Shown one piece after another: positions 11,750 to 51,302 of a stretch of DNA of 64,000 nucleotides (its first letter is position 1; each line of letters opens with the position of its first letter). Source of the stretch: an uncultured Nitrososphaerota archaeon (GTDB taxonomy: Archaea; Thermoproteota; Nitrososphaeria; Conexivisphaerales; DTJL01); the NCBI GenBank assembly GCA_963842885.1, contig CAWJIE010000004.1, positions 96,001-160,000 of the forward strand, written 5' to 3'. The translations under genes and the position numbers were made by a program. The notes beneath the pieces were generated by a model. The model ran no database searches and was not told the DNA's origin. It saw nothing but the letters and a program-made list of their open reading frames with translations.

Positions 11750-12535
11750 ATGGGCACTGAAGTGGTGAAACTCATCGCCGTTATGTCAAGAACGAAGAGG
11801 AGGCCTTTCGAGCTGATGGAGGAGCTCAACAGGAGTCTTGAAGCGAACGGTCTGCAGCTGGCCGACGGCGATGTTCTCCTTATTTCGGGCAAGTACCTTG
11901 CAATGGCCGAGGGCCGGTTTGTCGACCTCGACAAGGTCGTGCCCTTTGACGACGCGCGGGAATACGCCTCTAGGTTCGGCATGAGCAGCGGGCTTGCGGA
12001 GACGGTGTTGAGGGAGTCGGACTTCGTGCTACGCGGCCTTCAAGGCTTCCTCCTGACGATAAAGGATGGCTTCTTCGCACCGAACGCGGGAGTTGACAAG
12101 TCCAACATACCAAAGGGAGAGGCCATCCTTCACCCGTCCTACAGCTCACAGCTGGCCGCCAGGATCAGGAGGGAGGTTCTGGTGGCCTTTGGCGTGCGGG
12201 TGGGTGTAGTCATCACGGATAGCAGGCTGCAGCCTCTTAGGAGAGGGACGGTAGGGATATCGATTGGGTTCTCTGGCTTCGACGCGGTGGTGGATGACAG
12301 GGGGAGAAAGGACCTCTTCGGGAACAGGCTCAAGGTGACGCGCAGGGCCGTGGCTGACGATCTCGCATGCGCCGCAGAGTTGCTCATGGGGGAGTCCGAC
12401 GAGGGCGTGCCCGTAGTGATCGCCCGGTCGACTGGCCTTCACCTCTCTGACACAGACAGCTACGACATCTCGGTTCCCCCTGACGAATGCATCTTCGTCA
12501 GAGGCCTCTCCGACCACTGGAAACCCAGGGCCTAG
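11750..12535 (+). CDS. cofE: Coenzyme F420-0:L-glutamate ligase
   Basis: PNAGVDKSN, GVVITDS..PLRRGTVG, DLFGNRLKVT, MGESDEGVPVV. Confidence 0.9.
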   Translation: MGTEVVKLIAVMSRTKRRPFELMEELNRSLEANGLQLADGDVLLISGKYLAMAEGRFVDLDKVVPFDDAREYASRFGMSSGLAETVLRESDFVLRGLQGFLLTIKDGFFAPNAGVDKSNIPKGEAILHPSYSSQLAARIRREVLVAFGVRVGVVITDSRLQPLRRGTVGISIGFSGFDAVVDDRGRKDLFGNRLKVTRRAVADDLACAAELLMGESDEGVPVVIARSTGLHLSDTDSYDISVPPDECIFVRGLSDHWKPRA

Positions 12536-33663: not shown

Positions 33664-34809
33664 TTGAGCAAAGTCGACTACATCAACCGCATCTTCGAGA
33701 ACCTGAGCATGGTGGACGCTGCCCAGGTCGAGCCGTTCTACCATGACCTGACGAACGCAGGCGTGATCATACCCAGCGGCGAGGGGAGGTCCAAGGGAGC
33801 GATAAGCATAGCCTGCAGCGAGCTGGCCAAGATGAGCTACGGGAAGAGGGTCCTCGACAGGGGAGACATCGGCTTCCCGGCCACCGACATGGCTTTGGCG
33901 GCACCCATACTCAGGCGGAAGTACGGTCAGGTCTGCCTGCTCATCAACTCCAGCAGCGGGAAGTCGCTGACGCCGCTTCTTGACGCGCAGAAGCTCGGCA
34001 TCTACCTGGAGAACACCGGGCAATCCCGGGACTTCAGGATAGACCTGATCACATCGGACGCCGAGTCACCGATGGGGAAGCTCTCGGCGAAGTATGGTAA
34101 CATGATCGTCCTCAAGAGCAGAGAGGAGGCCGAGACCCTCGTTGAATCGAAGGAGTTCAAGAGCTACGGCATACTTGAGGACATGTTCTCACTTGCTAGC
34201 GGGCTCCTGGCCCACAGCATGGTGGAGGCCATATGGCAGGAGGCTCCCGCCATCAAGATCCTTTCGATTGTGAAGGACATGTCCGCGGACATATCGAACA
34301 TGATGGACGACTTTGTGGGTTCGGAATACTTTGAATCCCTGATCAATTCTCTGGAACAGAGGAACACGTGCTTCTTCGCCGGCCTGGGGAGCAGCAAGGA
34401 GGTCGTGAGGATGGCGGCCGTCAGAGTGGGCCACGTTAAACGGGCGCTCGGGGACCTGGTCTACGTCTCAGGGGACTCTAACATCCCGCCGCCGAGGGCA
34501 GGAGACACGATAATAGTCGTCTCGATGAGCGGCGAGACGGAGATCGTCGCCGGCTGGTGCAGGAACTTCAAGAAGATGGGCGGGCAGATCGCCTCCATCG
34601 TCGGCACGCCCGACAGCACCATCGGCTCGCTCTCGGACCACTCCTACATCCTCAAGGGAGACTGGAAGCCTGGCACGCCCAGCAGCTTCTACATGAAGTC
34701 GGCCTTCCTCCTCAGCCCTCTCCCCATCTTCCTAGTGGAGCGCGTCGAGCAGAGGGGCCTCAAGCTGCCCGAGAACATCCTCCGGTGGCACAGGTCAGTT
34801 ATTTCGTAA
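33664..34809 (+). CDS. Double SIS-domain sugar-phosphate isomerase (two 6-phospho-3-hexuloisomerase-like halves)
   Basis: SGEGRS/SSSGKS in the N-half; AGLGSS, VYVSGD..PP..AGD..VVSMSGET in the C-half. Confidence 0.75.
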   Translation: MSKVDYINRIFENLSMVDAAQVEPFYHDLTNAGVIIPSGEGRSKGAISIACSELAKMSYGKRVLDRGDIGFPATDMALAAPILRRKYGQVCLLINSSSGKSLTPLLDAQKLGIYLENTGQSRDFRIDLITSDAESPMGKLSAKYGNMIVLKSREEAETLVESKEFKSYGILEDMFSLASGLLAHSMVEAIWQEAPAIKILSIVKDMSADISNMMDDFVGSEYFESLINSLEQRNTCFFAGLGSSKEVVRMAAVRVGHVKRALGDLVYVSGDSNIPPPRAGDTIIVVSMSGETEIVAGWCRNFKKMGGQIASIVGTPDSTIGSLSDHSYILKGDWKPGTPSSFYMKSAFLLSPLPIFLVERVEQRGLKLPENILRWHRSVIS

Positions 34810-34810
34810 C

Positions 34811-35912
34811 CTAGTCGAGGGAAGTCCGCAGGGGGAGAGTCATCTTCTCCACGTCGGTGAGGCCCTCGTAGTACTCCTTCATCCACGGGAGTATGTCCCT
34901 GCCGACGAGGTGGAGGAACCTGTGCTCGTTGGGGCTGGCGCTGTGGATGTACACGCGGTTGAATCCCATCTTTAGGAACTCGCCCAGCCTCTTGATTATG
35001 TCATCGGAATCGTCGGTGATGAGCCAGGTCTTCTTTATCCCCTCAAGCTCGGCGGGCCCCACGTTGGCCTCGAGCTCCCTTGGATCGGATATGCTCTCGC
35101 GGATCTCCTTCGGGATGGTCGGTGGGGGCCCAGTAGGAGGCGGACTTGAACGCCCTTTCATAGTCGATGTCGTAGGACACCTTGAACTCCAGACAGGTGC
35201 CCAGTTTCGATGGGTCCTTGCCAGCAGCGACGGCGGCGTCCTGCATGGCCTTCAGGATCGCGATGTGGTTCTCCAGTCCCCTGGGATTGGTGAGTATCCC
35301 GTCGCCCAGCCTGCCTGCCAGGGCGGCGACCCTCGCGTTGGCCGTGGCGATGTAGATGGGTATCTTCTTCTTCGGGGGCGTGTAGAGCTTGGCGTTGACG
35401 AGCTTGAAGTGCTTGCCGTCGTAGTTGACGAAGTCGCCCTTCCAGAGGAGTTGGATGATCTCGACTGCCTCCTCCAACCTGGCGATCCTTTCACTGGCCT
35501 TGGGCCAATCGAAGCCCAGCGGTACCTCGTTCATCTTGTGACCGGTGCCCAACGTAATGAATATCCTGCCGGGGAAGAGGCAGTCGAGGGTGGCGAACGC
35601 CTGGGCCACGATGGCCGGGTGATAGCGGCCGGTGGGAGTGGTGACGGCCGTCCCCACTTCCGTGCTGCGCGTCTGGCTCGCCGCAGCCGCCAGCCACACC
35701 CATGGGAAGACGGCCTGACCGTCCTTGTCGCGCCAGGGGGAGAAGTGGTCGCTGACGGCAATCATGTCAAAGCCCACGACTTCCGCCTCCTTCGCGTATT
35801 GGATTAGAAGCTCGGGGTTGTGCTGCTCAGCCGCTGCCCAGTATCCCACCCTTAGCTTGGGCACGAGTTTTGGAGGTGTGATGGTGGGTAGATATGCTTT
35901 TGGCCACGCCAT
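34811..35912 (-). CDS. F420-dependent LLM oxidoreductase, F420-glucose-6-phosphate dehydrogenase (FGD)-like; frameshift near 35120
   Basis: AEQ, SDHFSPW, TPTGRYHPAIVAQAFATL, EFKVSYD, WAP, ISDPRELE. Confidence 0.85.
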
Positions 35913-36099
35913 CGCGGCAGGCGTCTCGAAGTTCTCCCCCACCCACGGGGAAGCCTAGTGTCTCTCCGAAGTAAACGCGACTCCATCCAACCGCCTCCGT
36001 CGGCGACGTAGAAGTGTCATCTACGTGGCGGGAGGCAAAGCATATCCAGCGGCATCGCTGGGGGCTGTTCGGAAGAGGCGGGAGGTTGATGGTATTGAA

Positions 36100-36127
36100 T
36101 TCTTTTCCAGCAGCAATAGATATCCAA
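36100..36127 (+). repeat. Left 28-bp direct repeat (attL-like)
   Basis: TTCTTTTCCAGCAGCAATAGATATCCAA, identical to 41468-41495; imperfect match extends over 36087-36132. Confidence 0.93.
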
Positions 36128-36204
36128 GATTATGTGTCCAAGCCTGAAATAATATCCTGAAAGAACAGTCGGCGCCGTCTTGGTGCTCGAGCTAGCTAGC
36201 CGTC

Positions 36205-37662
36205 TTAGAGTTTGAGGCCTTTGGCTACGGATTTACCCAACTTCGAATCAGCTTTAGTCAGATTCGCAACCACTCGCAGTCGAATCTGTTTGTCTATGGG
36301 TGTAAGGTCTGCAACGAGGTTGTCTATCACATGTTCTTGGTCCATCTTGTCTAAGGAACGATACTTCTCTCCGGCTTGTTGGAAGTCGTTTGTTCTGCTG
36401 ATCTTCTTCTTGGTAACATCTCCATCAACGCGAAATGTGGACGCTGTTCCTGACGGAGCCTCCACGGGTGAGCCTCCGGCAATGGTTGCTGGTTCATAAT
36501 TCACAGGACCACTGTATTCTCCCATTTGCATTGACCCATCGCGCTGGCTGTTGTTGACCTCCGCCACGGGACGGTTTACTGGAATCTGTAGATAGTTTGG
36601 TCCTAATCTATGGCGCTGGGTGTCCGCGTATGAGAATGTTCTGCCCTGGAGCAACTTATCGGCGGAGAATTCTATGCCTGGAACGATGCTTGCTGGACAG
36701 AAGGCTGCTTGCTCGGTTTCAGCGAAGAAGTTCTTGGGATTGCGATTCAATACCATCTTCCCGACTGGCATCAGCGGGAACTTGTCTTCAGGCCAAGTCT
36801 TCGTTGGATCAAGCGGGTCAAAGTCTTGTTTTAGTTCATCCTCAATCTTCATCAGCTGCACAAAGAGCCCATACTCGACCTCTTCACCCTTGGCTATCGC
36901 GTTCCAGAGATCGCGGGTGAGATAGTCTGGGTCGGTGCCAGCCAGCCGGGTTGCTTCATGACGGTCAAGATTGTGAACTCCCAATCTTGGCTTCCAGTGG
37001 TATTTCACGTACTGACGTTTTCCAGCCGAGTTCACCCAGACATACGTGTTGACTCCAAAGCCCTCAGTCATCCTATAGCTCTTCGGCGTCCCGCGGTCTG
37101 AGAAGAGCCACATGATCATGTGCGTTGATTCAGGGGTCAAGGATATGAAATCCCAGAAGCTGTTGTGTGATGAAGAAGCCGCAGGTATGTTGTTGTCAGG
37201 TGCGCCCTTGAATGCATGAACCATGTCCGGGAACTTGATAGCGTCTCGGATGAAGAATACGGGAAGGTCGTTTCCAACCAGGTCGTAGTTGCCTTCTTCG
37301 GTGTAGAACTTTACGGCAAATCCGCGTGGGTCCCGCACTGTGTCAGCAGACCCCCTTCCACCAGTTACAGTCGAGAACCTTACGAATACAGGAGTTTCCT
37401 TATCTGGGTCCTGAAGGAATTTCGCCTTTGTGTAGGGCGCCATGCTCTTGTAAACTCGGAAGTAACCGTGGGCTGCTGCCCCCTTTGCGTGGACAACTCT
37501 TTCTGGGATACGCTCTCTGTCGAAGTGTGCCATCTTCTCAATGAACTGGACATCTTGAAGCAAAACCGGACCTCGTTCGCCAACGGTCAATGAGTTCTGA
37601 TTGTCAGCTATTGGCACGCCTTGATTTGTTGTCAGATGTTTCTTTTCTTTCATTCTAGGCAT
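36205..37662 (-). CDS. katA: Monofunctional small-subunit heme catalase
   Basis: HFDRERIPERVVHAKG, VRFSTV, RDPRGFAVKFY, RTFSYADTQRHRLG. Confidence 0.96.
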   Translation of the reverse strand: MPRMKEKKHLTTNQGVPIADNQNSLTVGERGPVLLQDVQFIEKMAHFDRERIPERVVHAKGAAAHGYFRVYKSMAPYTKAKFLQDPDKETPVFVRFSTVTGGRGSADTVRDPRGFAVKFYTEEGNYDLVGNDLPVFFIRDAIKFPDMVHAFKGAPDNNIPAASSSHNSFWDFISLTPESTHMIMWLFSDRGTPKSYRMTEGFGVNTYVWVNSAGKRQYVKYHWKPRLGVHNLDRHEATRLAGTDPDYLTRDLWNAIAKGEEVEYGLFVQLMKIEDELKQDFDPLDPTKTWPEDKFPLMPVGKMVLNRNPKNFFAETEQAAFCPASIVPGIEFSADKLLQGRTFSYADTQRHRLGPNYLQIPVNRPVAEVNNSQRDGSMQMGEYSGPVNYEPATIAGGSPVEAPSGTASTFRVDGDVTKKKISRTNDFQQAGEKYRSLDKMDQEHVIDNLVADLTPIDKQIRLRVVANLTKADSKLGKSVAKGLKL

Positions 37663-37766
37663 TTCGATTCAATAGCAGATGTCCGAATCCCCTATAAATT
37701 TCTATCGTCATCGCGTAGCTAGCTAGGCCGGCCAAGTGGGCATCGTACGATTGCCATAAGTGTTGG

Positions 37767-38240
37767 GTGGCTCCTGGATCAACTCCCTGGATTCCGTTAC
37801 CGGATTCCCCCAGGGTTTTACAGGCTTTTTCGGCCATTAAGCACTTCGAGGAATTCCTTGTTTCCGAAGTCAAAACGGGAGAGGTGTCGCTCTGCGATCC
37901 CTACGTGTCCCCTTCTACACTATATCCCTTCTCCGCGTTGAAGGGTGACCTTAAGATTCTTCGTATCCTTACTTCCAACATCTACGATTCTGACAAGTTC
38001 GTTGACTACCGCAGGAAGTTCGAGAAGGAGATGAAACTGGTCGTCGAAGTCAGGAAGAGTAGGCAGATTCATGACAGATATCTCCTTGCTCAGGGCCGGT
38101 GCTGGTCAATTGGGTCAAGCATCAAGGACCTGGGTAACAAGGATACGATAGTCAAGGAGATTACAGAAGTCGCTGAATCCCTGACAGACCTGTTCGCAAA
38201 GAGGTGGGCTGAAGCAGAGGCGGAGGGAGTATCGGTATGA
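37767..38240 (+). CDS. Phospholipase D-like (HDR-type) nuclease-fold protein, possibly N-terminally truncated
   Basis: LCDPY, ILTS, IHDRYLL, SIGSSIKDLG. Confidence 0.7.
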   Translation: MAPGSTPWIPLPDSPRVLQAFSAIKHFEEFLVSEVKTGEVSLCDPYVSPSTLYPFSALKGDLKILRILTSNIYDSDKFVDYRRKFEKEMKLVVEVRKSRQIHDRYLLAQGRCWSIGSSIKDLGNKDTIVKEITEVAESLTDLFAKRWAEAEAEGVSV

Positions 38241-38839
38241 CCGATCAGGACAAAGGCCTCCCACCTAGGGTTGAGATTGCATTGGAGGCCGACTATGGTA
38301 CCTTTAGGGCGAGCGTCTCAGGGTTTCTCGACCGTGACGGTGATGCCAAATCCCTGGTCGCGGCATTGGCAAGGGCATTGGCAGAAGTCAACGAGTCCAG
38401 GAAGGACATCGACGAGGCTCTCAAAGGGGTGCACCGTGCCAAAGCCCAAGCACCGGAGCCACGACAGGCTCAACCATCTCAGTCGGGACCACCAAAGGAG
38501 TCAGCGTTGCCTGCGAGAGGCAAGGCCGGAATCCTCGAGTTCTCAGAAAACGACGTTAGATACCCACCGTCAGCTTTCAAGATACTGGGGTTCCCAGAAG
38601 CAATCGCCCTACTGATGTACGAGATAGACTTACCCTTGATGCCGGCCCGGATATCCTTCCTGATAAACAGAGGCTTCAAACACATTGACCCTAAGAACAT
38701 AAGTTCGTGTCTGACGAACAAGACCAGATACAAATTGCCCAACTATGTGATAAGAGAGAGCGCGGGTTGGAGGCTCACCGGGTCAGGTAGAGTTTGGGTG
38801 GAGAATGAAATCATCCCCAGTCTGAAGGCTGGACCTTAG
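38237..38839 (+). CDS. Hypothetical protein with probable C-terminal winged helix
   Basis: ATGA overlap with the upstream gene; helix-helix-wing pattern ending GWRLTGSGRVWV. Confidence 0.65.
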   Translation: MTDQDKGLPPRVEIALEADYGTFRASVSGFLDRDGDAKSLVAALARALAEVNESRKDIDEALKGVHRAKAQAPEPRQAQPSQSGPPKESALPARGKAGILEFSENDVRYPPSAFKILGFPEAIALLMYEIDLPLMPARISFLINRGFKHIDPKNISSCLTNKTRYKLPNYVIRESAGWRLTGSGRVWVENEIIPSLKAGP

Positions 38840-38860
38840 TCGCGACTGGCCGCGCAGAGG

Positions 38861-39218
38861 ATGGAGAGGAAAGCGTTGGGCTATTCTTCAGCTGTGGACG
38901 TGGTACTGGAGGTTATCGTCTCAGGGGTGACTGGGCTTGTCTCAGGTGTAATGATAAACGCAATGGCTGTGGCCTTGTCCAACGTGGAGCCGAGCTACTC
39001 TTGGCTAGTGGGCTTGGTCCTGCCTAGTGATTATCCCCATAATAGGCGCGTTCTCTGACACAGAACAGATGATTGTGAGAGGAGCATTTTACTGCCTGGC
39101 GGTGATGATGACATCGCTGTTCATCTTCAACGATGTGGCTGAAGCAGGCTTGGCTGTTGTGGCTTTGGTTCTCACACTGATTCTGTCATACTACAAGAAC
39201 AATGACAGCGGATGGTAG
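38861..39218 (+). CDS. Small multi-TM membrane protein (frameshift near 39025)
   Basis: Two overlapping hydrophobic ORFs that join into ~4 TM helices. Confidence 0.55.
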
Positions 39219-39319
39219 TCCGGCTTGCGTAGATGACATCGCGGCTCTTCCCACCAGCGGATGAACCCATCTGGAAAGCACTCATCAATCCCCACCCATT
39301 GTGAGCTATTGGTCGAGAG

Positions 39320-39733
39320 ATGTCAATCTGGGGAGGGACGCCTCGGCGCAGAAGAACCAAGAGGAATAGAGGGAAGACCGCCTACAGGAAGGGGAAGATT
39401 GGAGAAACCAAAGTGAGGAAGCTCCTCGGGCGGCGAGGCATTAAACCCGTAACGAACCGGCTGCGGACGGCGAGCGGCGAGCATGACATAATTGTGCAGA
39501 CGAGAACAGGGAAGGCCTCCGTTGAGGTCAAGAATCTCAAGAGCCCTGTCTCCGCTGCAATGGTGGAGAAATTCGCAAAGAAGGTCAGCAAAGACAAGAA
39601 CATCGTAAAGAGGGGCATCTTCGTCTCAAAAAGCGGCTACACATCAGCAGCACGTAAAGCAGCAAGAGAACGGCACGTCAAACTGATGGACTACAAGCCT
39701 CCAAGAAGGAAAAAGTCCGGCTGGCTCTTCTGA
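39320..39733 (+). CDS. Stand-alone Mrr-like PD-(D/E)XK restriction endonuclease domain
   Basis: GE..., GEHDIIV, VEVKN, GIFVSKSGYTSAA, VKLMD; very basic N-terminus. Confidence 0.85.
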   Translation: MSIWGGTPRRRRTKRNRGKTAYRKGKIGETKVRKLLGRRGIKPVTNRLRTASGEHDIIVQTRTGKASVEVKNLKSPVSAAMVEKFAKKVSKDKNIVKRGIFVSKSGYTSAARKAARERHVKLMDYKPPRRKKSGWLF

Positions 39734-39798
39734 CCACTGAATTCGGATCCTCACCACTTGCAAAAGTTATTAATTGAGGGAGTAATGGAATGCAATGG

Positions 39799-39882
39799 AT
39801 GAAGTTAGTCAAATTTCGAACCAAGAAGGGCAAGAAAGTGTCTTTCCTCGGCCAGAGAACACAAAAAGAAAAAGGAGGATAG
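39799..39882 (+). CDS. Basic microprotein MKLVKFRTKKGKKVSFLGQRTQKEKGG (27 aa)
   Basis: Read manually; TATA-like TTATTAA at ~39766; shares a KVSF motif with the next ORF. Confidence 0.5.
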   Translation: MKLVKFRTKKGKKVSFLGQRTQKEKGG

Positions 39883-39886
39883 GTAG

Positions 39887-40024
39887 ATGCGCCAAGCCAG
39901 TTTCCTCGCGAAGTCGAAGGTGACGAAGAAAGTATCGTTTGAAACTAAGGAAGGAAAAGTGTCTTTAAAGGCCAAGGTACCTTCCAAACGAAGGAAGAAA
40001 GTAACATTCTATCACTCCAACTGA
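39887..40024 (+). CDS. Basic microprotein with repeated KV(S/T)(F/L) motif (45 aa)
   Basis: MRQASFLAKSKVTKKVSFETKEGKVSLKAKVPSKRRKKVTFYHSN; GGAGG upstream. Confidence 0.6.
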   Translation: MRQASFLAKSKVTKKVSFETKEGKVSLKAKVPSKRRKKVTFYHSN

Positions 40025-40074
40025 GAAGGGCAAAGATAATATCCACCGGTTCGTACTTACCAAGCGAGGAATAT

Positions 40075-40224
40075 ATGCCTAAGAAGATGAAGAACCCGAT
40101 TGATAGAATGGCTAAGGACGCAAAGGCTATGGGGAAATCAATCGAGAAGACGATGACCAAGGATGGAAAAGCTATGGAGAAGTCATTCGACAAGATGTTC
40201 GGTACTAAGAAGCACCGGAAATAG
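40075..40224 (+). CDS. Lys/Met-rich microprotein with a 15-aa tandem repeat (49 aa)
   Basis: MAKDAKAMGKSIEKT / MTKDGKAMEKSFDKM; GAGGA upstream. Confidence 0.6.
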   Translation: MPKKMKNPIDRMAKDAKAMGKSIEKTMTKDGKAMEKSFDKMFGTKKHRK

Positions 40225-40496
40225 ACTCGCTGCAAAATGAAAGCATAATCTCTGTTTGTCCAACCTACAGGCGGGGCAAACCCAGAGACTGAGTCAGTCC
40301 CATTTTCGCAGGTCCAAGCCTACGTCCTTAGCTCGACCCCGATCTTGACGCTGTAGCTAAAGTTTCTCCGTCGACAGCTCAAATTCATCCTAACTCACTA
40401 CAAGCATGATTAGGACGAACAGATTGAGAATAATTCCGGCGATGATTTCGCCAAGAGTACCGCTTATAACCAAGCTACCACGATTACACCTTCATC

Positions 40497-40766
40497 TTGC
40501 CAATCCTGAAACTGCTCGACGGGACGGAAAGGAACGTCGATATCATCATTACGCTCACAGAAACGCCTACGCGAGGAGGCAAAGTCAAGCACATGAGGAT
40601 TGACCTCGAAAAATCAGAAGATTGGCTCCAAGTCGGCGCCTCAATGGTCGAGTATTCCAAGGACGGGTACATCTTCTACGTACCGATACGCCTTGTCAGC
40701 TTCATAGGAACTCGGGCGCTTGAAGTGGACGAATTTGCCCGCGACGTGCAAAGGGAATTGCGTTAA
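40497..40766 (+). CDS. Hypothetical protein (89 aa)
   Basis: TTATAA at ~40464 upstream; natural beta-rich composition. Confidence 0.55.
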   Translation: MPILKLLDGTERNVDIIITLTETPTRGGKVKHMRIDLEKSEDWLQVGASMVEYSKDGYIFYVPIRLVSFIGTRALEVDEFARDVQRELR

Positions 40767-40937
40767 GTTCTTCGAATCAGGGGCAACACCACGACTTAGG
40801 CACAAACCCCGATTACCCAAGCGGATTGAACTACCTTATGTTACGCTCCTATCCCGGTTGGAACCTAGAGGGTAGGTCAACTGAAAGGGATGATCTAACC
40901 ATCAAGTATAGCAAACGACACCGAAAAGTATTAGATT

Positions 40938-41192
40938 GTGCCTCAGCCAGTTATCCCCATGCCTATTTGTCCAAACTGTAGCAGGGCTATCGAGTTTAAT
41001 CCGCAACTCAATGAGCGCCTTGGCTATCTCGCTTATCAGCACAAGGAATCTGGAATCTACGATCAGAATGGACGCAATCAAGGAAACGAGACATTGGAGT
41101 TCTTTTGTCCCTTGTGCGGTGCTCTGGTTGCCACGAGAGAAGCTGATGCATTAGACTTCATCAAGAAAAGAATGAGCCAAATCACACCATGA
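40938..41192 (+). CDS. Small zinc-ribbon protein
   Basis: CPNC...CPLCG pairs. Confidence 0.65.
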   Translation: MPQPVIPMPICPNCSRAIEFNPQLNERLGYLAYQHKESGIYDQNGRNQGNETLEFFCPLCGALVATREADALDFIKKRMSQITP

Positions 41193-41467
41193 GAGGATTC
41201 TGCTATCATTGGGTAATTTCGTTCCCTGTTCCACTTTGGGTGACGGCTTTCTCAAGTAGCTCCATCCACTTGTTCTTTCCGTTCACCCCGATTCCCGCCA
41301 CGAAAGGGCTGATTCTGTCTGTCTAAGCTACAGGTTGGGCGGACTTAAAAACCACCAACGGCAGTGGGCCAGCCTCCCGCCCTCATTCAGTTATTCTATT
41401 GTTTTCAATAACATAAAGATGATTAAGCTATTGAGTCGTCATCGTCGGTCAGACTGATGATATTGAC

Positions 41468-41495
41468 TTCTTTTCCAGCAGCAATAGATATCCAA
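41468..41495 (+). repeat. Right 28-bp direct repeat (attR-like)
   Basis: Identical to 36100-36127; imperfect match extends over 41455-41500. Confidence 0.93.
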
Positions 41496-41524
41496 AAATA
41501 CCATGAGAGCTAAACAAAGACGGC

Positions 41525-42181
41525 TTGTGGGTTGTTCTTTCGCACAAACTGGGCGCGAAGACCCCCTCCTTCGGCGCGGGTCCTTCCCTCACTATAGCAC
41601 CGATCAAGGAGATGAAGACCGGCGGCTCGAGCAACAGTTACACGCTCTCCTTCCCCAATCATCTTGGCACGCACATCGACGCTCCCAAGCACGTCGACGA
41701 CGGGGGAAAGGCCGTTTCTGACTACCCCCTTGACGCCTTCGTCTTCCTTCATCCTCTTGTCCTGGAGATTCCAAAAGGCGAATCTGAGCTGGTCACCCTG
41801 GAGGAGTTGAAGGAGCACAAGGGCGAGATTGGGAAGGCGGACCTCCTTCTGCTGCGCACAGGTTTTCAGGTCTACCGAGACAGGGACCCGGCCAAGTACA
41901 TGAACATGAATCCTGGCGTGTCGGCGGAGGCAGCCAGCTATCTTGCGTCCGATTTCCCGCGCCTGAGGGCCCTGGGCTTCGACTTCATTTCGCTGTCGGC
42001 AGTTCAGAAGAGAGAGGAGGGGCGGAAGGCACACAGAGCCCTCCTCAGTGGCCGGGACTTCTTCATCATTGAAGACATGGACCTGTCAAGATGCCCGAAG
42101 AGGGCCCGCCGTGTCTTCGTCATTCCGCTCTTCGTCGAAGGGATCGACAGCGCTCCCTGCACGGTCGCAGCCGAGACATGA
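41525..42181 (+). CDS. Cyclase-family metallohydrolase (kynurenine formamidase-like)
   Basis: HLGTHIDAPKH, LLLRTG, GFDFIS, AHRALL, IIEDM, DSAPC. Confidence 0.9.
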   Translation: MWVVLSHKLGAKTPSFGAGPSLTIAPIKEMKTGGSSNSYTLSFPNHLGTHIDAPKHVDDGGKAVSDYPLDAFVFLHPLVLEIPKGESELVTLEELKEHKGEIGKADLLLLRTGFQVYRDRDPAKYMNMNPGVSAEAASYLASDFPRLRALGFDFISLSAVQKREEGRKAHRALLSGRDFFIIEDMDLSRCPKRARRVFVIPLFVEGIDSAPCTVAAET

Positions 42182-42238
42182 CCTGGTTAGAGACTTCTCG
42201 TCGCAACACAGAAAAGCACACATCGGCCAGACAGTAGG

Positions 42239-43657
42239 ATGGAGCGGACTTTGCCCAAAGCTCAGATCGGCGTGCTCGGCCTAGGCACCATGGGCGAAAG
42301 CTTGGCCCTCAACATGGCTGGAAAGGGCTTCCCTGTGGCCGTCTACAACCGCACGGCAGAGAAGACCAAGGAATTCATGCGGCGGGTCGACAAGTCGATG
42401 ACGGTCGTGCCTGCATACAGCCTTCCCGAGTTCTCCGGAGCCATTGAGACGCCAAGAAAAGTGCTGCTGATGGTGACAGCCGGTCAGGCAGTCGACCAGA
42501 TGATTCGGCAAATCTCACCTTTGCTCTCGAAAGGGGACATCCTCATCGACGCTGGTAACTCCTTCTTCAGGGACACCGAGCGTCGCGGGAGGGAGACCTG
42601 CGAAGTCGGGCTGCGCTTCCTTGGCGTTGGGGTGAGCGGGGGGGAGGAAGGCGCTTTGAAGGGACCTTGCGTGATGGTGGGAGGTCCAAAGGAGGCTTAC
42701 GCGCAGGTTGAAGCCATACTCGGGAAGATAGCCGCGCGGACTCCGTCCGGCGTGTGCTCGGCATACCTCGGCCCGGGCGGAGCAGGGCATTTCACGAAGA
42801 TGGTCCACAACGGCATCGAGTATGCGCTCATGGAGCTCATCGCCGAGGCCTACGACCTCCAGGTTACTGGGCTGGACCTAGAGGCGGGCGCCGTCAGAGA
42901 TAACTTCTCAGGCTGGAACGACCACGAACTTCAGTCGTATCTAATGGAGATCACGGTCCAGGCCCTGTCCAAGACGGATGAGGATACGGGGAGGCCTCTC
43001 GTGGAGATGATACTCGATCAGGCAAAGCAGAAGGGAACTGGCAAATGGACTTCCCAGACGGCGCTGGACCTAGGCGTGCCCATCCCGACGATCGATGCCG
43101 GAGTGTCTGCCAGGAACCTCTCAGCATACAAGGACGAACGCGTCAGAGCCTCGAAGTTGCACCCTTCTGTCAGAGTAGCCTACAGAGGCGACACATCCGA
43201 CATATGCGACGAGCTGGGAGACGCCCTCTACTGCTCTTTCATAGCCTCCTTCGCACAGGGATTCACTCTGTTGAAGGCGGGTTCGAAGGAGTACGGTTAT
43301 GCGCTTCCTCTCGACGAGATAGCCCGTATTTGGAAGGGCGGCTGCATCATCAGAGCGAAACTGCTGGACAGGGTTCAGGCGGCTTTCGCAGCTGAACCCT
43401 CCCTGGACAACCTTATGGTCGACAGCAGCCTGGAACCGATCCTGCGGAGATTTGAAGGCAGCTGGCGGCACGTCGTCCAGGTGATGAAGTCCCTGTCAAT
43501 CCCGGCGCCCGCCATGGACTCGGCCCTCGACTACTACGACTCCTATCGCAGGGAGAAGCTGCCGGCGAACTTGATTCAGGCCCTCAGGGACATCTTCGGC
43601 GCCCACACATATGAAAGGATCGACAAGGCGGGCTCGTACCACACCGACTGGGCCTAG
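42239..43657 (+). CDS. gnd: 6-phosphogluconate dehydrogenase, decarboxylating (long, NADP-type)
   Basis: GLGTMG, VYNRT, VSGGEEGA, KMVHNGIEY, QKGTGKWT, GGCIIRA, RDIFGAHTY. Confidence 0.96.
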   Translation: MERTLPKAQIGVLGLGTMGESLALNMAGKGFPVAVYNRTAEKTKEFMRRVDKSMTVVPAYSLPEFSGAIETPRKVLLMVTAGQAVDQMIRQISPLLSKGDILIDAGNSFFRDTERRGRETCEVGLRFLGVGVSGGEEGALKGPCVMVGGPKEAYAQVEAILGKIAARTPSGVCSAYLGPGGAGHFTKMVHNGIEYALMELIAEAYDLQVTGLDLEAGAVRDNFSGWNDHELQSYLMEITVQALSKTDEDTGRPLVEMILDQAKQKGTGKWTSQTALDLGVPIPTIDAGVSARNLSAYKDERVRASKLHPSVRVAYRGDTSDICDELGDALYCSFIASFAQGFTLLKAGSKEYGYALPLDEIARIWKGGCIIRAKLLDRVQAAFAAEPSLDNLMVDSSLEPILRRFEGSWRHVVQVMKSLSIPAPAMDSALDYYDSYRREKLPANLIQALRDIFGAHTYERIDKAGSYHTDWA

Positions 43658-48580: not shown

Positions 48581-51302
48581 TCACTGTTTGTTTGCTTCTT
48601 TGATGAGGCGAGTTATAAGGTCTCTCAGGGGCTGAGTAGTGGAGGGTATCTCGCCACCTCCCTGGGCCATCTTCGCCGAGCCGCCGCCGGAGCCGCCCAA
48701 GAGCTTGGAGGACTCCTTCACCAGCGTCGAGGCGTCCACGCCGGAAGCCCGGGCCTTCTCGCCGGCGAAGATGATGATCCGGCACCTCCCGTTGAGCCTG
48801 GCCACCCCTACGTAGACGACCTCAGGCCTCTTCTCGACGATCTGCTCTCCCATGGCGATGTGCGCCTGGTCATCGTAATAGTCCGCGTCCAGGAAGAGGA
48901 GCCTGATTCCTCCGATGTCCTCGGACAGATGGGCGATGTTGGCGGCCATCTGGGCGGAGAGCTCCTTCGAGATGCTCTTGTACCTCTTCTTGAGCTGGTC
49001 GTTTCCCTCCCTAAGCGAGCCCACAACGGAGACGATCTGCTCGGGCTGCGTCTGGAACTGCTCGGCGACGCCAAGGACCCTGGATTCCTGCTCCGCCATG
49101 TACTTCACGGCCGGCCCTCCGGCCACGAATTCGAGGCGCTCGACGCCGTCCTGCAGCCTCTCAGCCTTGAGAAGTTTGATGTAGCCCACGTCGCCCGTCC
49201 TGCTGCAGTGGGTCCCTCCGCACGCTTCGACGTCGAAGTCTCCTATCTTCTGAACACGAAGGTCCTTCGCTGGGATCACCCCTCCCTGGTAGAGCCTGAA
49301 GCCATACTTCTGCTCCGCCACGCTGCGTGGCAGGACCTGCAGGTCCACCAGGATGTTCTCGCGGACGACCTGGTTGGCGACTTCTTCGATCTTGAGCATC
49401 TCCTCTCGGGTGAGGTGGCTATGGTGGGTAATGTCAAGCCTTGCCTTGTCGATGTCCTTGTAGGCGGAATGCTGCCAGACCCATGGGCCGAGGACCTGCC
49501 GGGCGGCCCCGTTCACGATGTGTGTGGCGGTGTGGTGGCGCATCAGGATGCCCCTCCTCACCTGGTCGACCCTTCCGTGAACCATCTCGCCTTCTGCCGG
49601 GGCCTTCCCCTCGAGGACGTGGACGATGACGTCGCCGTATTTGATAACGTCGACAACCGGTATCCCGTCGATGGTGCCGAGGTCAGGCTCCTGCCCTCCC
49701 GATCGCGGGTAGAACGCCGTCTGGTCCAGCACGATGGCGTCGTCCCTCAAAGGCCCGGAGGACCTTTGCGTCGAAGTCGAAGAGTGACCTCTCTTCGTAG
49801 AAGAGGGGCCTGGTCCTGGGCAACCCTGTAGTGTCATAGAGGGGCTTCTCCTCCGCCTGCTTCTGGACGATGTGCCTCTCCGTGACCTTCATGTAGAAGT
49901 CGGAGGGGACCGTTATGGAGAGGCCGTTCTCCTTAAGGAGCTCGGGCGTGACCCCCTCGCTGTCGTAGAGGCGGATGAGATCTTCCAGCGACGGCGATTT
50001 CTTTGACTTCTGCAGCTGCTGAACAATGGAGGCGACGCGGGCCTTGCTGGCATCGTACCTCCTCTCTTCGACGCCGAATATCTGTTCCACTGAGCCGATG
50101 CCCTCGGCCAACTCCGGATACATGGGCTTCAAGAACTCGGCATGAAGCGAAGCCAGCTCCGCCAGCGTTATGTCCCAGCCGTACTCTTCGATGAAGTTCT
50201 GGGCCCTTCGGAACAGGACCCGGAGGTTGTACCCGCCGGCCACGTTGCTGGGGAGCGCTCCGTCGACTATGGCGAATAGCAGTGTCCTGCTGTGGTCCAA
50301 GAGCGAGAAGGCCGCCTCCAGTGGAGCGATCTGCGCTTCAAGTCCCTCGCCCGTAAGGCCCAGCTTCCTAGCGACGGCCTCCTTGGCGGCGATGGGGTTC
50401 TGCACCTCGGTGATGTCCAATGAGCCAGCGAGGGAATAGTACTCCGTCAATAGCTTCTGGTCTGGGCGTAGCCCCAGCCGCTTGATGAGATGGTCGTAGA
50501 CTGGGCCGAATACGGCTTCGTAGCTGGTGGGCGTCCCCCGGGTCATCCAGGTGAAACGATTCAGGCCCGCGCCCATGTCGACTATGGGGTGGGGCATCGT
50601 GACGTAGCTCTCGGGCGAGCCTTCGAATTCGGTGAAAACGGCGTTCCCGATTTCAAGGCCTCTCACGTAGTATTCCAGAGAATAGCCGAAGGCCCCATAG
50701 CCCAGCCAGACGTCCTCTACGAAGGTTATCTCCTTCTTGGGGACGCCGAAGGGTCCCGTGAGAAGCCCGTAGTCCAGCTCGATGGTCTTGTCCTTCCAGT
50801 ATCCCTGGGCGTTGTTCACGGCGTGCTGGCCCACCATGCAGAAGGAGGTGTAGTGGCGCCCGGTCACGCCCACATTCTCGATGTCGTTGAACCTCAGGCA
50901 CATCTGGGGGACGACGAGAGGGTTGGCGGGGAAGTCAAAGATTATCTTTCCGTTCTCGACCCTCTGGAAGTCGATTATGGAGGCGACTGTGAAGTAGAGG
51001 TCGGGCCTCCAGCGGGCCACGACGGGATACCTCTTCACGCTTGTGTGGCCACGATCGACGAAGTACTTCTCGATGGAAGCCCAGGCGGTGGTGTAGTCCT
51101 TTCTGACGCTAGTGGGCGGCCTGCCTATGAAAGTGTACCCTTCGCATTCGGGGCACAGAGAGGCGTCGCTGGCCGTCCAGATGAACTTGCCACAGTTGGT
51201 GCATTGTCTGCGAACGAAGCCCTCCTGGCCGAACAGGGCGACCTTGTAGTACCGGGCGTAGTCCTCGGAGAACTTGCGGCGGAGCACGTCCTTGGATGCC
51301 AA
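48581..51302 (-). CDS. alaS: Alanine--tRNA ligase (frameshift near 49750)
   Basis: RYPVVARWR, TGRHYTSF, DMGAGL, GGYNLR; editing HTATH..CGGTH, GSGGG. Confidence 0.96.

Follow-up and report, generated by a model that had tools for sequence, protein, structure and literature searches.

A conserved archaeal gene cluster joining an F420-type oxidoreductase to a cyclase-family hydrolase, a candidate for the lactonase step of an oxidative pentose phosphate pathway

Gene content of the locus

We analyzed a 64,000-nucleotide stretch of DNA (the window) from an uncultured soil archaeon of the Nitrososphaerota (contig CAWJIE010000004.1; G000:C4:96001-160000 in our numbering). The metagenome-assembled genome (MAG) to which it belongs, G000, comprises 2.03 Mb in 11 contigs and is 87% complete. 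Four genes of the window are the subject here: those for a double-SIS protein, for an oxidoreductase of the LLM family that resembles FGD, a glucose-6-phosphate dehydrogenase relying on F420, for a cyclase-family metal hydrolase, and for the 6-phosphogluconate dehydrogenase Gnd. The initial annotation of the window had listed these genes together with cofE, and the open reading frames (ORFs) and family scans of the window place all of them at the coordinates given in Table 1. It had also predicted that, once an island bounded by direct repeats is removed, the genes run in the order SIS, LLM (opposite strand), cyclase, gnd. This order is confirmed at the locus, and the island-free arrangement SIS(+) LLM(-) cyclase(+) gnd(+) is found exactly in a relative, G067. 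The CofE-like protein scores above the TIGR01916 cut-off (189 vs 180.65 bits, match at G000:C4:107846-108460).

Table 1. Features of the locus and their positions in the window
Feature	Position	Strand	Basis or remark
Double-SIS sugar-phosphate isomerase-like protein, 381 aa	33664-34809	+	PF01380, C-terminal half
FGD-like F420-type LLM oxidoreductase	34811-35942	-	PF00296 179 bits; TIGR03554 is the best NCBIfam match
Direct repeat, left copy, 46 nt	36087-36132	.	91% identity to right copy
Inserted island, lower GC	36133-41454	.	Catalase, two family-less ORFs, Mrr-like nuclease
Catalase in island	37662-36205	-	ORF and family scan
Two island ORFs without family	37767-38240, 38237-38839		Family scan
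Mrr-like nuclease in island	39320-39733		Family scan
Direct repeat, right copy, 46 nt	41455-41500	.	Native upstream region of the cyclase gene
Cyclase-family metal hydrolase, 218 aa, candidate 6-phosphogluconolactonase	41525-42181	+	PF04199 84.8 bits
gnd, NADP-type decarboxylating 6-phosphogluconate dehydrogenase, 472 aa	42239-43657	+	NF006765 621 bits
CofE-like F420:gamma-glutamyl ligase	11750-12535	+	PF01996 203 bits; TIGR01916 189 bits

Co-inheritance and gene neighborhood

The LLM and cyclase genes are inherited together almost without exception. We examined 401 genomes sampled evenly across the phylum, in which LLM orthologues (at least 60% identity) are separated by a clear gap from paralogues (at most 46%). 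The LLM orthologue was detected in 41 genomes and the cyclase orthologue in 40; 40 genomes have both and 360 have neither. The single genome with an LLM and no cyclase carries the LLM near a contig end. The two genes share a contig in 36 of the 40 genomes and are head-to-head in all 36, and in 32 of these pairs the gap does not exceed 1.2 kb and is usually near 120 bp. Related genomes are non-independent samples; at least seven GTDB families (f1, f6, f9, f21, f27, f40 and f62) contain the pair. By these co-occurrence counts the gene arrangement is far beyond chance. Among 41 relatives, the six genomes with a cyclase orthologue (G000-G004 and G037) are also precisely those with an LLM orthologue and with a SIS orthologue; gnd is present there and additionally in four sister genomes.

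Relatives of the cyclase were scanned in one genome per species, giving 80 loci that were searched with the window proteins. An LLM orthologue lies beside the cyclase at 32 loci, of which 23 also carry the SIS gene and 14 the long form of gnd. Three further loci, all from the window's genus, have the cyclase and gnd, with the LLM outside the retrieved flank or past the end of the contig. The position of gnd varies: it is found as gnd(-) SIS(+) LLM(-) cyclase(+), as LLM(-) cyclase(+) gnd(+), as gnd(-) ... LLM(-) cyclase(+), and, in G037, as a co-directional gnd-cyclase-LLM run with spacers of 15-17 nt. A 6-phosphogluconate dehydrogenase is encoded somewhere in 33 of the 38 cyclase-bearing genomes. 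The expectation that the cluster would recur beyond the window is thus borne out, for the cyclase and LLM across the phylum sample and for gnd at the 14 of 32 loci that it adjoins.

A second line of evidence connects the cyclase with the canonical oxidative branch. Orthologues of the cyclase adjoin a canonical zwf and a short gnd at two of the 80 loci, L048 and L090. At L048 (G158:C38), zwf converges on the cyclase orthologue (55% identical) with only 8 nt between them, and it is the last gene of an operon that also holds transketolase, a transaldolase-PGI fusion and a short gnd. The Cohnella homologue of the cyclase (L090) has a thioredoxin-reductase-like gene, a short gnd and zwf nearby. The PF01182 genes of both zwf-bearing genomes were considered as Pgl and rejected, as both are NagB. 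Weak partial matches to the YbhE-type lactonase occur in G158. Both zwf-gnd cases are suggestive, not decisive.

The G158 genome is itself unusual, being a MAG labeled Nitrososphaerales with a bacterial-style tkt / tal-pgi / gnd / zwf operon beside the cyclase orthologue; ParB/Noc-like and NagB genes are on another of its contigs (G158:C29, L125). Either a mixed bin or horizontal acquisition of the genes may account for this. In Pasteurellaceae, cyclase homologues of about 40% identity (L089, L093-L095, L098, L107, L111 and L113) have a GntP-family (gluconate-type) permease and alpha/beta-hydrolase esterases within a few kb, a context suggestive of a link to sugar-acid or lactone metabolism in bacteria as well.

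Two other neighborhoods concern gnd and the paralogues of the pair. Sister genera that lack the LLM/cyclase/SIS trio (L123, G005:C1 2040-7488; L121, G006:C10) retain gnd, and its neighbors there form a conserved run: a PNP-family phosphorylase, an aldo/keto reductase and a GFO/IDH/MocA oxidoreductase, which may be alternative partners supplying 6-phosphogluconate. Family f4 (L118, G011:C5; L119, G014:C4; L120, G024:C22) has paralogues of both proteins, an LLM of 44-46% identity and a cyclase of 28-31%, whose genes are 1.3-1.4 kb apart in the company of a sugar transporter, an M24 peptidase-like gene and KARI. They may represent a further and looser association of LLM and cyclase proteins, which is not counted as independent support.

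The encoded proteins and the proposed pathway

The cyclase-family protein matches PF04199 well above the gathering score of 23.1 (Table 1), and the metal-ligand residues of this family, the HxGTHxDxPxH motif together with His170 and Glu183 (H46, H50, D52, H56, H170 and E183), are invariant in 19 homologues. Arg118, a clade-specific residue, is invariant too. In a Foldseek search, its AF2 model (pLDDT 96.7) retrieves the Ruegeria cyclase-phosphotriesterase 8f9x as the top match, as well as KynB and isatin hydrolases, with probability 1.00, a TM-score of about 0.8 and 20-25% identity. The Ruegeria enzyme is described, in the accessible part of its report, as able to "efficiently degrade[s] lactones" (PMC9371700), and lactone hydrolysis thus has a precedent in this fold. 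The window protein shares fold and metal-ligand motif with these PF04199 enzymes, but differs in sequence, in a genomic background without a kynurenine pathway and in its own conserved context. With the canonical 6-phosphogluconolactonases (DevB/Pgl, PF01182/TIGR01198; YbhE, PF10282) it would have in common the proposed reaction and the position in the pathway. It has no homology to them, is predicted to act as a lactonase through a metal and adopts the swivelling beta/beta/alpha-type fold of PF04199.

The LLM of the window is split by an apparent frameshift (see below), and its two pieces reach 233.4 and 46 bits on the FGD equivalog model TIGR03554, whose cut-off is 420. Intact orthologues of 343-360 amino acids pass the cut-off of the F420_G6P_family LLM subfamily model TIGR03557 (230-245 vs 210.4 bits), and the truncated N-terminal piece from the window scores 208.7 bits on the same model. 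The best PDB sequence matches are the solved FGDs 5lxe and 3b4y, with E-values of about 1e-87. Three catalytic residues of FGD are retained in the window and in nearly all orthologues (Glu13 in 31 of 31, His40 and Trp44 in 30 of 31 each). The positions of Lys198 and Lys259, which together with Arg283 are important for the phosphate pocket of FGD (PMC5352752), are occupied by arginine in 31 of 31 and 30 of 31 orthologues, respectively. On these data the LLM is a relative of FGD, not an FGD equivalog, and its substrate is likely anionic (phosphorylated). It has the TIM-barrel family and the basic residues at positions 198 and 259 in common with FGD, but differs from it in the low TIGR03554 score, in three replaced residues (Ser73 is Ala; Glu109 and Arg283 are discussed below), in its archaeal host, in the pairing with a cyclase-family hydrolase, and in a host family in which FO synthase genes were not found.

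The assignment of Gnd is straightforward, as the protein exceeds the cut-offs of both NF006765 (621 vs 413 bits) and TIGR00873 (595.8 vs 426.7 bits). The SIS protein matches PF01380 with 25.7 bits, and the 6-phospho-3-hexuloisomerase (PHI) model TIGR03127 with 76.3 bits, below the cut-off of 160 and over the C-terminal half only, PHI being its closest relative by sequence. PDB sequence matches include the HPS-PHI protein 9lj9, AF1796 and YckF. Its AF2 model (pLDDT 85.7) consists of two tandem SIS domains, the double-SIS fold known from hexose-6-phosphate isomerases and deaminases such as GlmS, GlmD and AgaS, and aligns over about 390 columns with GlmS isomerase domains, PH0510 and GlmD (TMq 0.5-0.62).

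The initial annotation had seen no canonical zwf or pgl in the window and proposed to confirm their absence genome-wide. We searched five genomes (G000, G002, G004, G006 and G037) for canonical enzymes, and neither zwf (TIGR00871) nor a DevB-type pgl (PF01182) was found in any of the five, nor was HPS (TIGR03128) or a classical PGI. Matches to PF10282 in G000 and G002 were considered as YbhE and rejected, being short propeller-repeat matches only. All five genomes encode, away from the cluster, a PGI/PMI-like protein that scores below its cut-off. Among the 38 cyclase-bearing genomes, two have zwf and two have PF01182. In G000 we obtained no tblastn match to a bacterial-type transketolase or tal-pgi fusion, a result that covers these queries only and, in an 87%-complete MAG, is not proof of absence. 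Because HPS, transketolase and transaldolase were not found with the queries used, the cluster may be the only source of ribulose-5-phosphate in the window genome.

The genes for F420 itself are partly present. cofE is found in all five genomes, with two copies in G000, of which the window copy is the second. cofD is detected in eight of nine genomes at E<=0.001 and exceeds its cut-off in six of the nine. cofH was found in G037. The presence of cofD and cofE, with cofG and cofH not found in the window's family, points to scavenging of FO, the deazaflavin core, rather than de novo synthesis of F420; if the window's LLM uses F420, it would therefore need scavenged FO.

We propose that these four proteins constitute an oxidative pentose phosphate shunt assembled from non-canonical parts. 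The substrate of the FGD-like LLM would be a hexose-6-phosphate, most likely glucose-6-phosphate, which the enzyme would convert to the lactone by oxidation at C1 while reducing the deazaflavin F420. The cyclase-family metal hydrolase would then open 6-phosphoglucono-lactone to 6-phosphogluconate, and Gnd would decarboxylate this to ribulose-5-phosphate with formation of NAD(P)H. At the entry to the pathway, the double-SIS protein would probably interconvert fructose-6-phosphate and glucose-6-phosphate. On balance we lean towards this complete scheme. Its central element, the cyclase as the best candidate for the missing lactonase step, is strongly supported by context. From the interpretation in the initial annotation, the co-clustering, the distinction of the cyclase from KynB and, in the genomes searched, the missing zwf and pgl genes have held up, whereas the lactonase activity, the substrate of the LLM, its use of F420 and the role of the SIS protein are still predictions.

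Several findings weigh against this scheme. 6-Phosphogluconolactone also hydrolyzes spontaneously, so a lactonase is not strictly required, and the lactonase search did not cover SMP-30/SGL-type and other lactonase families. In the window's family, the FO synthase genes were not found (cofG in 0 of 9 genomes, cofH in 0 of 4). A PGI/PMI-like gene elsewhere in the genome makes the SIS protein dispensable as a PGI. In the four sister genomes gnd occurs without the trio, and 45 of the 80 loci, mostly of bacterial homologues (36-49% identity) and including L048 and L090, have neither an LLM orthologue nor a long gnd. Cohnella encodes a full YbhE-type lactonase elsewhere in its genome (351 bits), which weakens the case made by its zwf-gnd adjacency. 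Regarding the LLM, seven intact orthologues score only 266-318 bits on TIGR03554, under its cut-off, and intact orthologues score about as well on the FMN-type model TIGR03885 (234-250 bits) as on TIGR03557, although far under the cut-off of TIGR03885 itself (398.7). The position of Glu109, the proposed acid that donates a proton to N1 of F420 in FGD, is a histidine in 30 of 31 orthologues and in the window (GTGHKMNE). The position of Arg283 is Thr or Ser in 30 of 31 orthologues and position 282 is variable; the R282Q substitution nearly abolishes the activity of Rh-FGD1 (PMC5352752).

These departures from FGD are where the leading alternative starts. The LLM and the cyclase could be true partners with another substrate, either a different sugar phosphate (the product of a PHI-like SIS protein, or mannose- or fructose-6-phosphate as for FSD), or one that the cyclase, acting before the LLM, frees by ester or amide hydrolysis. 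The FSD relatives of the LLM accept several sugar-6-phosphates (PMC12384609), and the low FGD score, the missing Glu109 and Arg283, the affinity of the SIS protein to PHI and not to PGI, and the presence of gnd at just 14 of 32 loci all fit this alternative. The recurrent fourth neighbor, though, is gnd, whose sole known substrate is 6-phosphogluconate; zwf and gnd adjoin the cyclase in two genomes; and no HPS that would make or use hexulose-6-phosphate was found in the five genomes. We consider such a different substrate or order of steps possible but unlikely, and it takes up most of the probability that the proposed shunt leaves.

The cyclase could also be an ordinary formamidase or amidohydrolase outside sugar metabolism, which merely shares a divergent promoter with the LLM, while the lactone hydrolyzes on its own. 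Close homologues are automatically annotated as arylformamidase or kynurenine formamidase and the metal-binding motif is that of KynB. At high temperature the lactone hydrolyzes quickly by itself, and the record titles of many carriers point to hot-spring archaea. Against this, the cyclase reaches 50.3 bits on the KynB model TIGR03035, where the cut-off is 223, its identity to KynB is only about 20-25%, and tryptophan 2,3-dioxygenase (PF03301) was found in none of the five genomes, so that the kynurenine formamidase that the initial annotation had named as the competing identity is not supported. The conservation of the pair across at least seven families, and the recurrence of the cyclase beside non-homologous glucose-6-phosphate dehydrogenases, also speak against it, and we regard the formamidase explanation as quite improbable. 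Marginally less probable still is an amino-sugar route in which the cyclase deacetylates N-acetylglucosamine-6-phosphate and the double-SIS protein is a GlmD-type glucosamine-6-phosphate deaminase yielding fructose-6-phosphate, with the LLM and Gnd downstream or independent: the characterized native activities of PF04199 are all amide or lactam hydrolysis (KynB, isatin hydrolase) and the top structural matches of the SIS protein include PH0510 and the Pyrococcus/Thermotoga glucosamine-6-phosphate deaminases, but this route accounts neither for the near-obligate pairing of cyclase and LLM, given that constancy is lowest for the SIS gene (23 of 32), nor for the zwf-gnd neighbors, and no NCBIfam deaminase model matches the SIS protein at E<=0.01.

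Returning to the proposed shunt, an oxidative pathway of the F420 type in these archaea is already published, and the pathway idea is not new. In the available text, the reconstruction of Calditenuis aerorheumensis (Beam et al. 2016) includes an F420-using oxidative pentose phosphate pathway (PPP) "with the exception of gluconolactonase" (PMC4681859), and a 2023 study of Caldarchaeales MAGs reports an "incomplete oxidative PPP" with the non-oxidative branch absent (PMC10547907). Our cluster involves the same lineages and the same genes, an F420-type glucose-6-phosphate dehydrogenase and gnd; the accessible parts of these two reports, in contrast, name no lactonase candidate and describe no conserved LLM-cyclase-SIS cluster. 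FGD homologues of Thaumarchaeota are otherwise merely annotated in the accessible parts of two further papers (PMC10640624, PMC8498797). The oxidative PPP of haloarchaea, as far as the citing text tells (Pickl and Schonheit 2015, cited in PMC8506132), uses the glucose-6-phosphate dehydrogenase Azf. It is likewise archaeal, with a first enzyme that is not orthologous to Zwf followed by Gnd, but its dehydrogenase is of the SDR type and uses NAD, and it belongs to another lineage. A full-text literature search, outside which subscription journals and supplements fall, returned no paper that links a cyclase-family protein to 6-phosphogluconolactonase. As far as can be searched, neither the conserved LLM-cyclase(-SIS-gnd) cluster nor the cyclase as a lactonase candidate is in print.

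Whether and how archaea run an oxidative PPP has long been unsettled, and for Aigarchaeota and Thaumarchaeota the published reconstructions have no enzyme at the lactonase step. A conserved and readily cloned candidate of 218 residues makes this gap directly testable. If the prediction is correct, PF04199 would gain a function in central metabolism, the widespread "arylformamidase / kynurenine formamidase" annotations would be corrected, and the LLM would stand as an FGD subtype of its own, one of interest to biocatalysis for regenerating F420. A further-reaching version, which we put forward tentatively and as somewhat short of probable, is that the LLM-paired clade of PF04199 evolved independently as a third type of 6-phosphogluconolactonase, one that depends on a metal. 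In combination with a divergent subtype of FGD (His109, Arg-Arg phosphate pocket), it would provide the sole pentose-phosphate route in archaeal lineages without a ribulose monophosphate pathway and apparently also without transketolase and transaldolase, with F420 made from scavenged FO in the window's family.

The reading-frame break and the inserted island

In the window the LLM gene falls into two ORFs, 35942-35043 and 35161-34811, that overlap and differ in frame; its true start is probably the GTG at 35864. Alignment with the congeners G002, G003 and G004 reveals a single extra base near 35119-35121. This base is missing in all four public contigs that cover the site (three runs from two studies, not fully independent, as the best-matching run may be the source sample), and one of these contigs matches the full 1.5-kb stretch with nine other differences. 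A further run, X6, does not reach this site, and no RNA run was listed for the stretch. Because all four contigs lack the extra base, the split most likely reflects an assembly error, or else a rare variant, with the gene intact in the population. The alanyl-tRNA synthetase gene of the window (48581-51302, minus strand) is also split into two overlapping frames (49683-51302 and 48581-49837), whose products match consecutive portions of PF01411. With this, two genes of the window appear frameshifted, this one essential, which suggests that the assembly contains indel errors.

The divergent promoter region between the LLM and the cyclase has been split in the window genome by an island of about 5.4 kb. 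Its GC content is 0.46-0.54, compared with about 0.59 outside, and the two 46-nt repeat copies at its ends are bordered by unrelated flanking sequence. In the congener G002 the 46-nt segment is single-copy and lies upstream of the cyclase. Family scans of the island showed no integrase or transposase. Congeners of the window genome carry different inserts at the same site, the spacer between LLM and cyclase being about 3 kb in G001, 9.4 kb in G004 and 10.7 kb in G002, with a contig break in G003. The spacer is thus an insertion hot spot in the window's genus (L033, L034 and L035 besides the window), ranging from 3 to 10.7 kb and differing in content. The insert of G002 shares with that of the window homologues of the 200-aa ORF (42% identity) and of the Mrr-like nuclease (62%), while the catalase is the contribution of the window's own insert.

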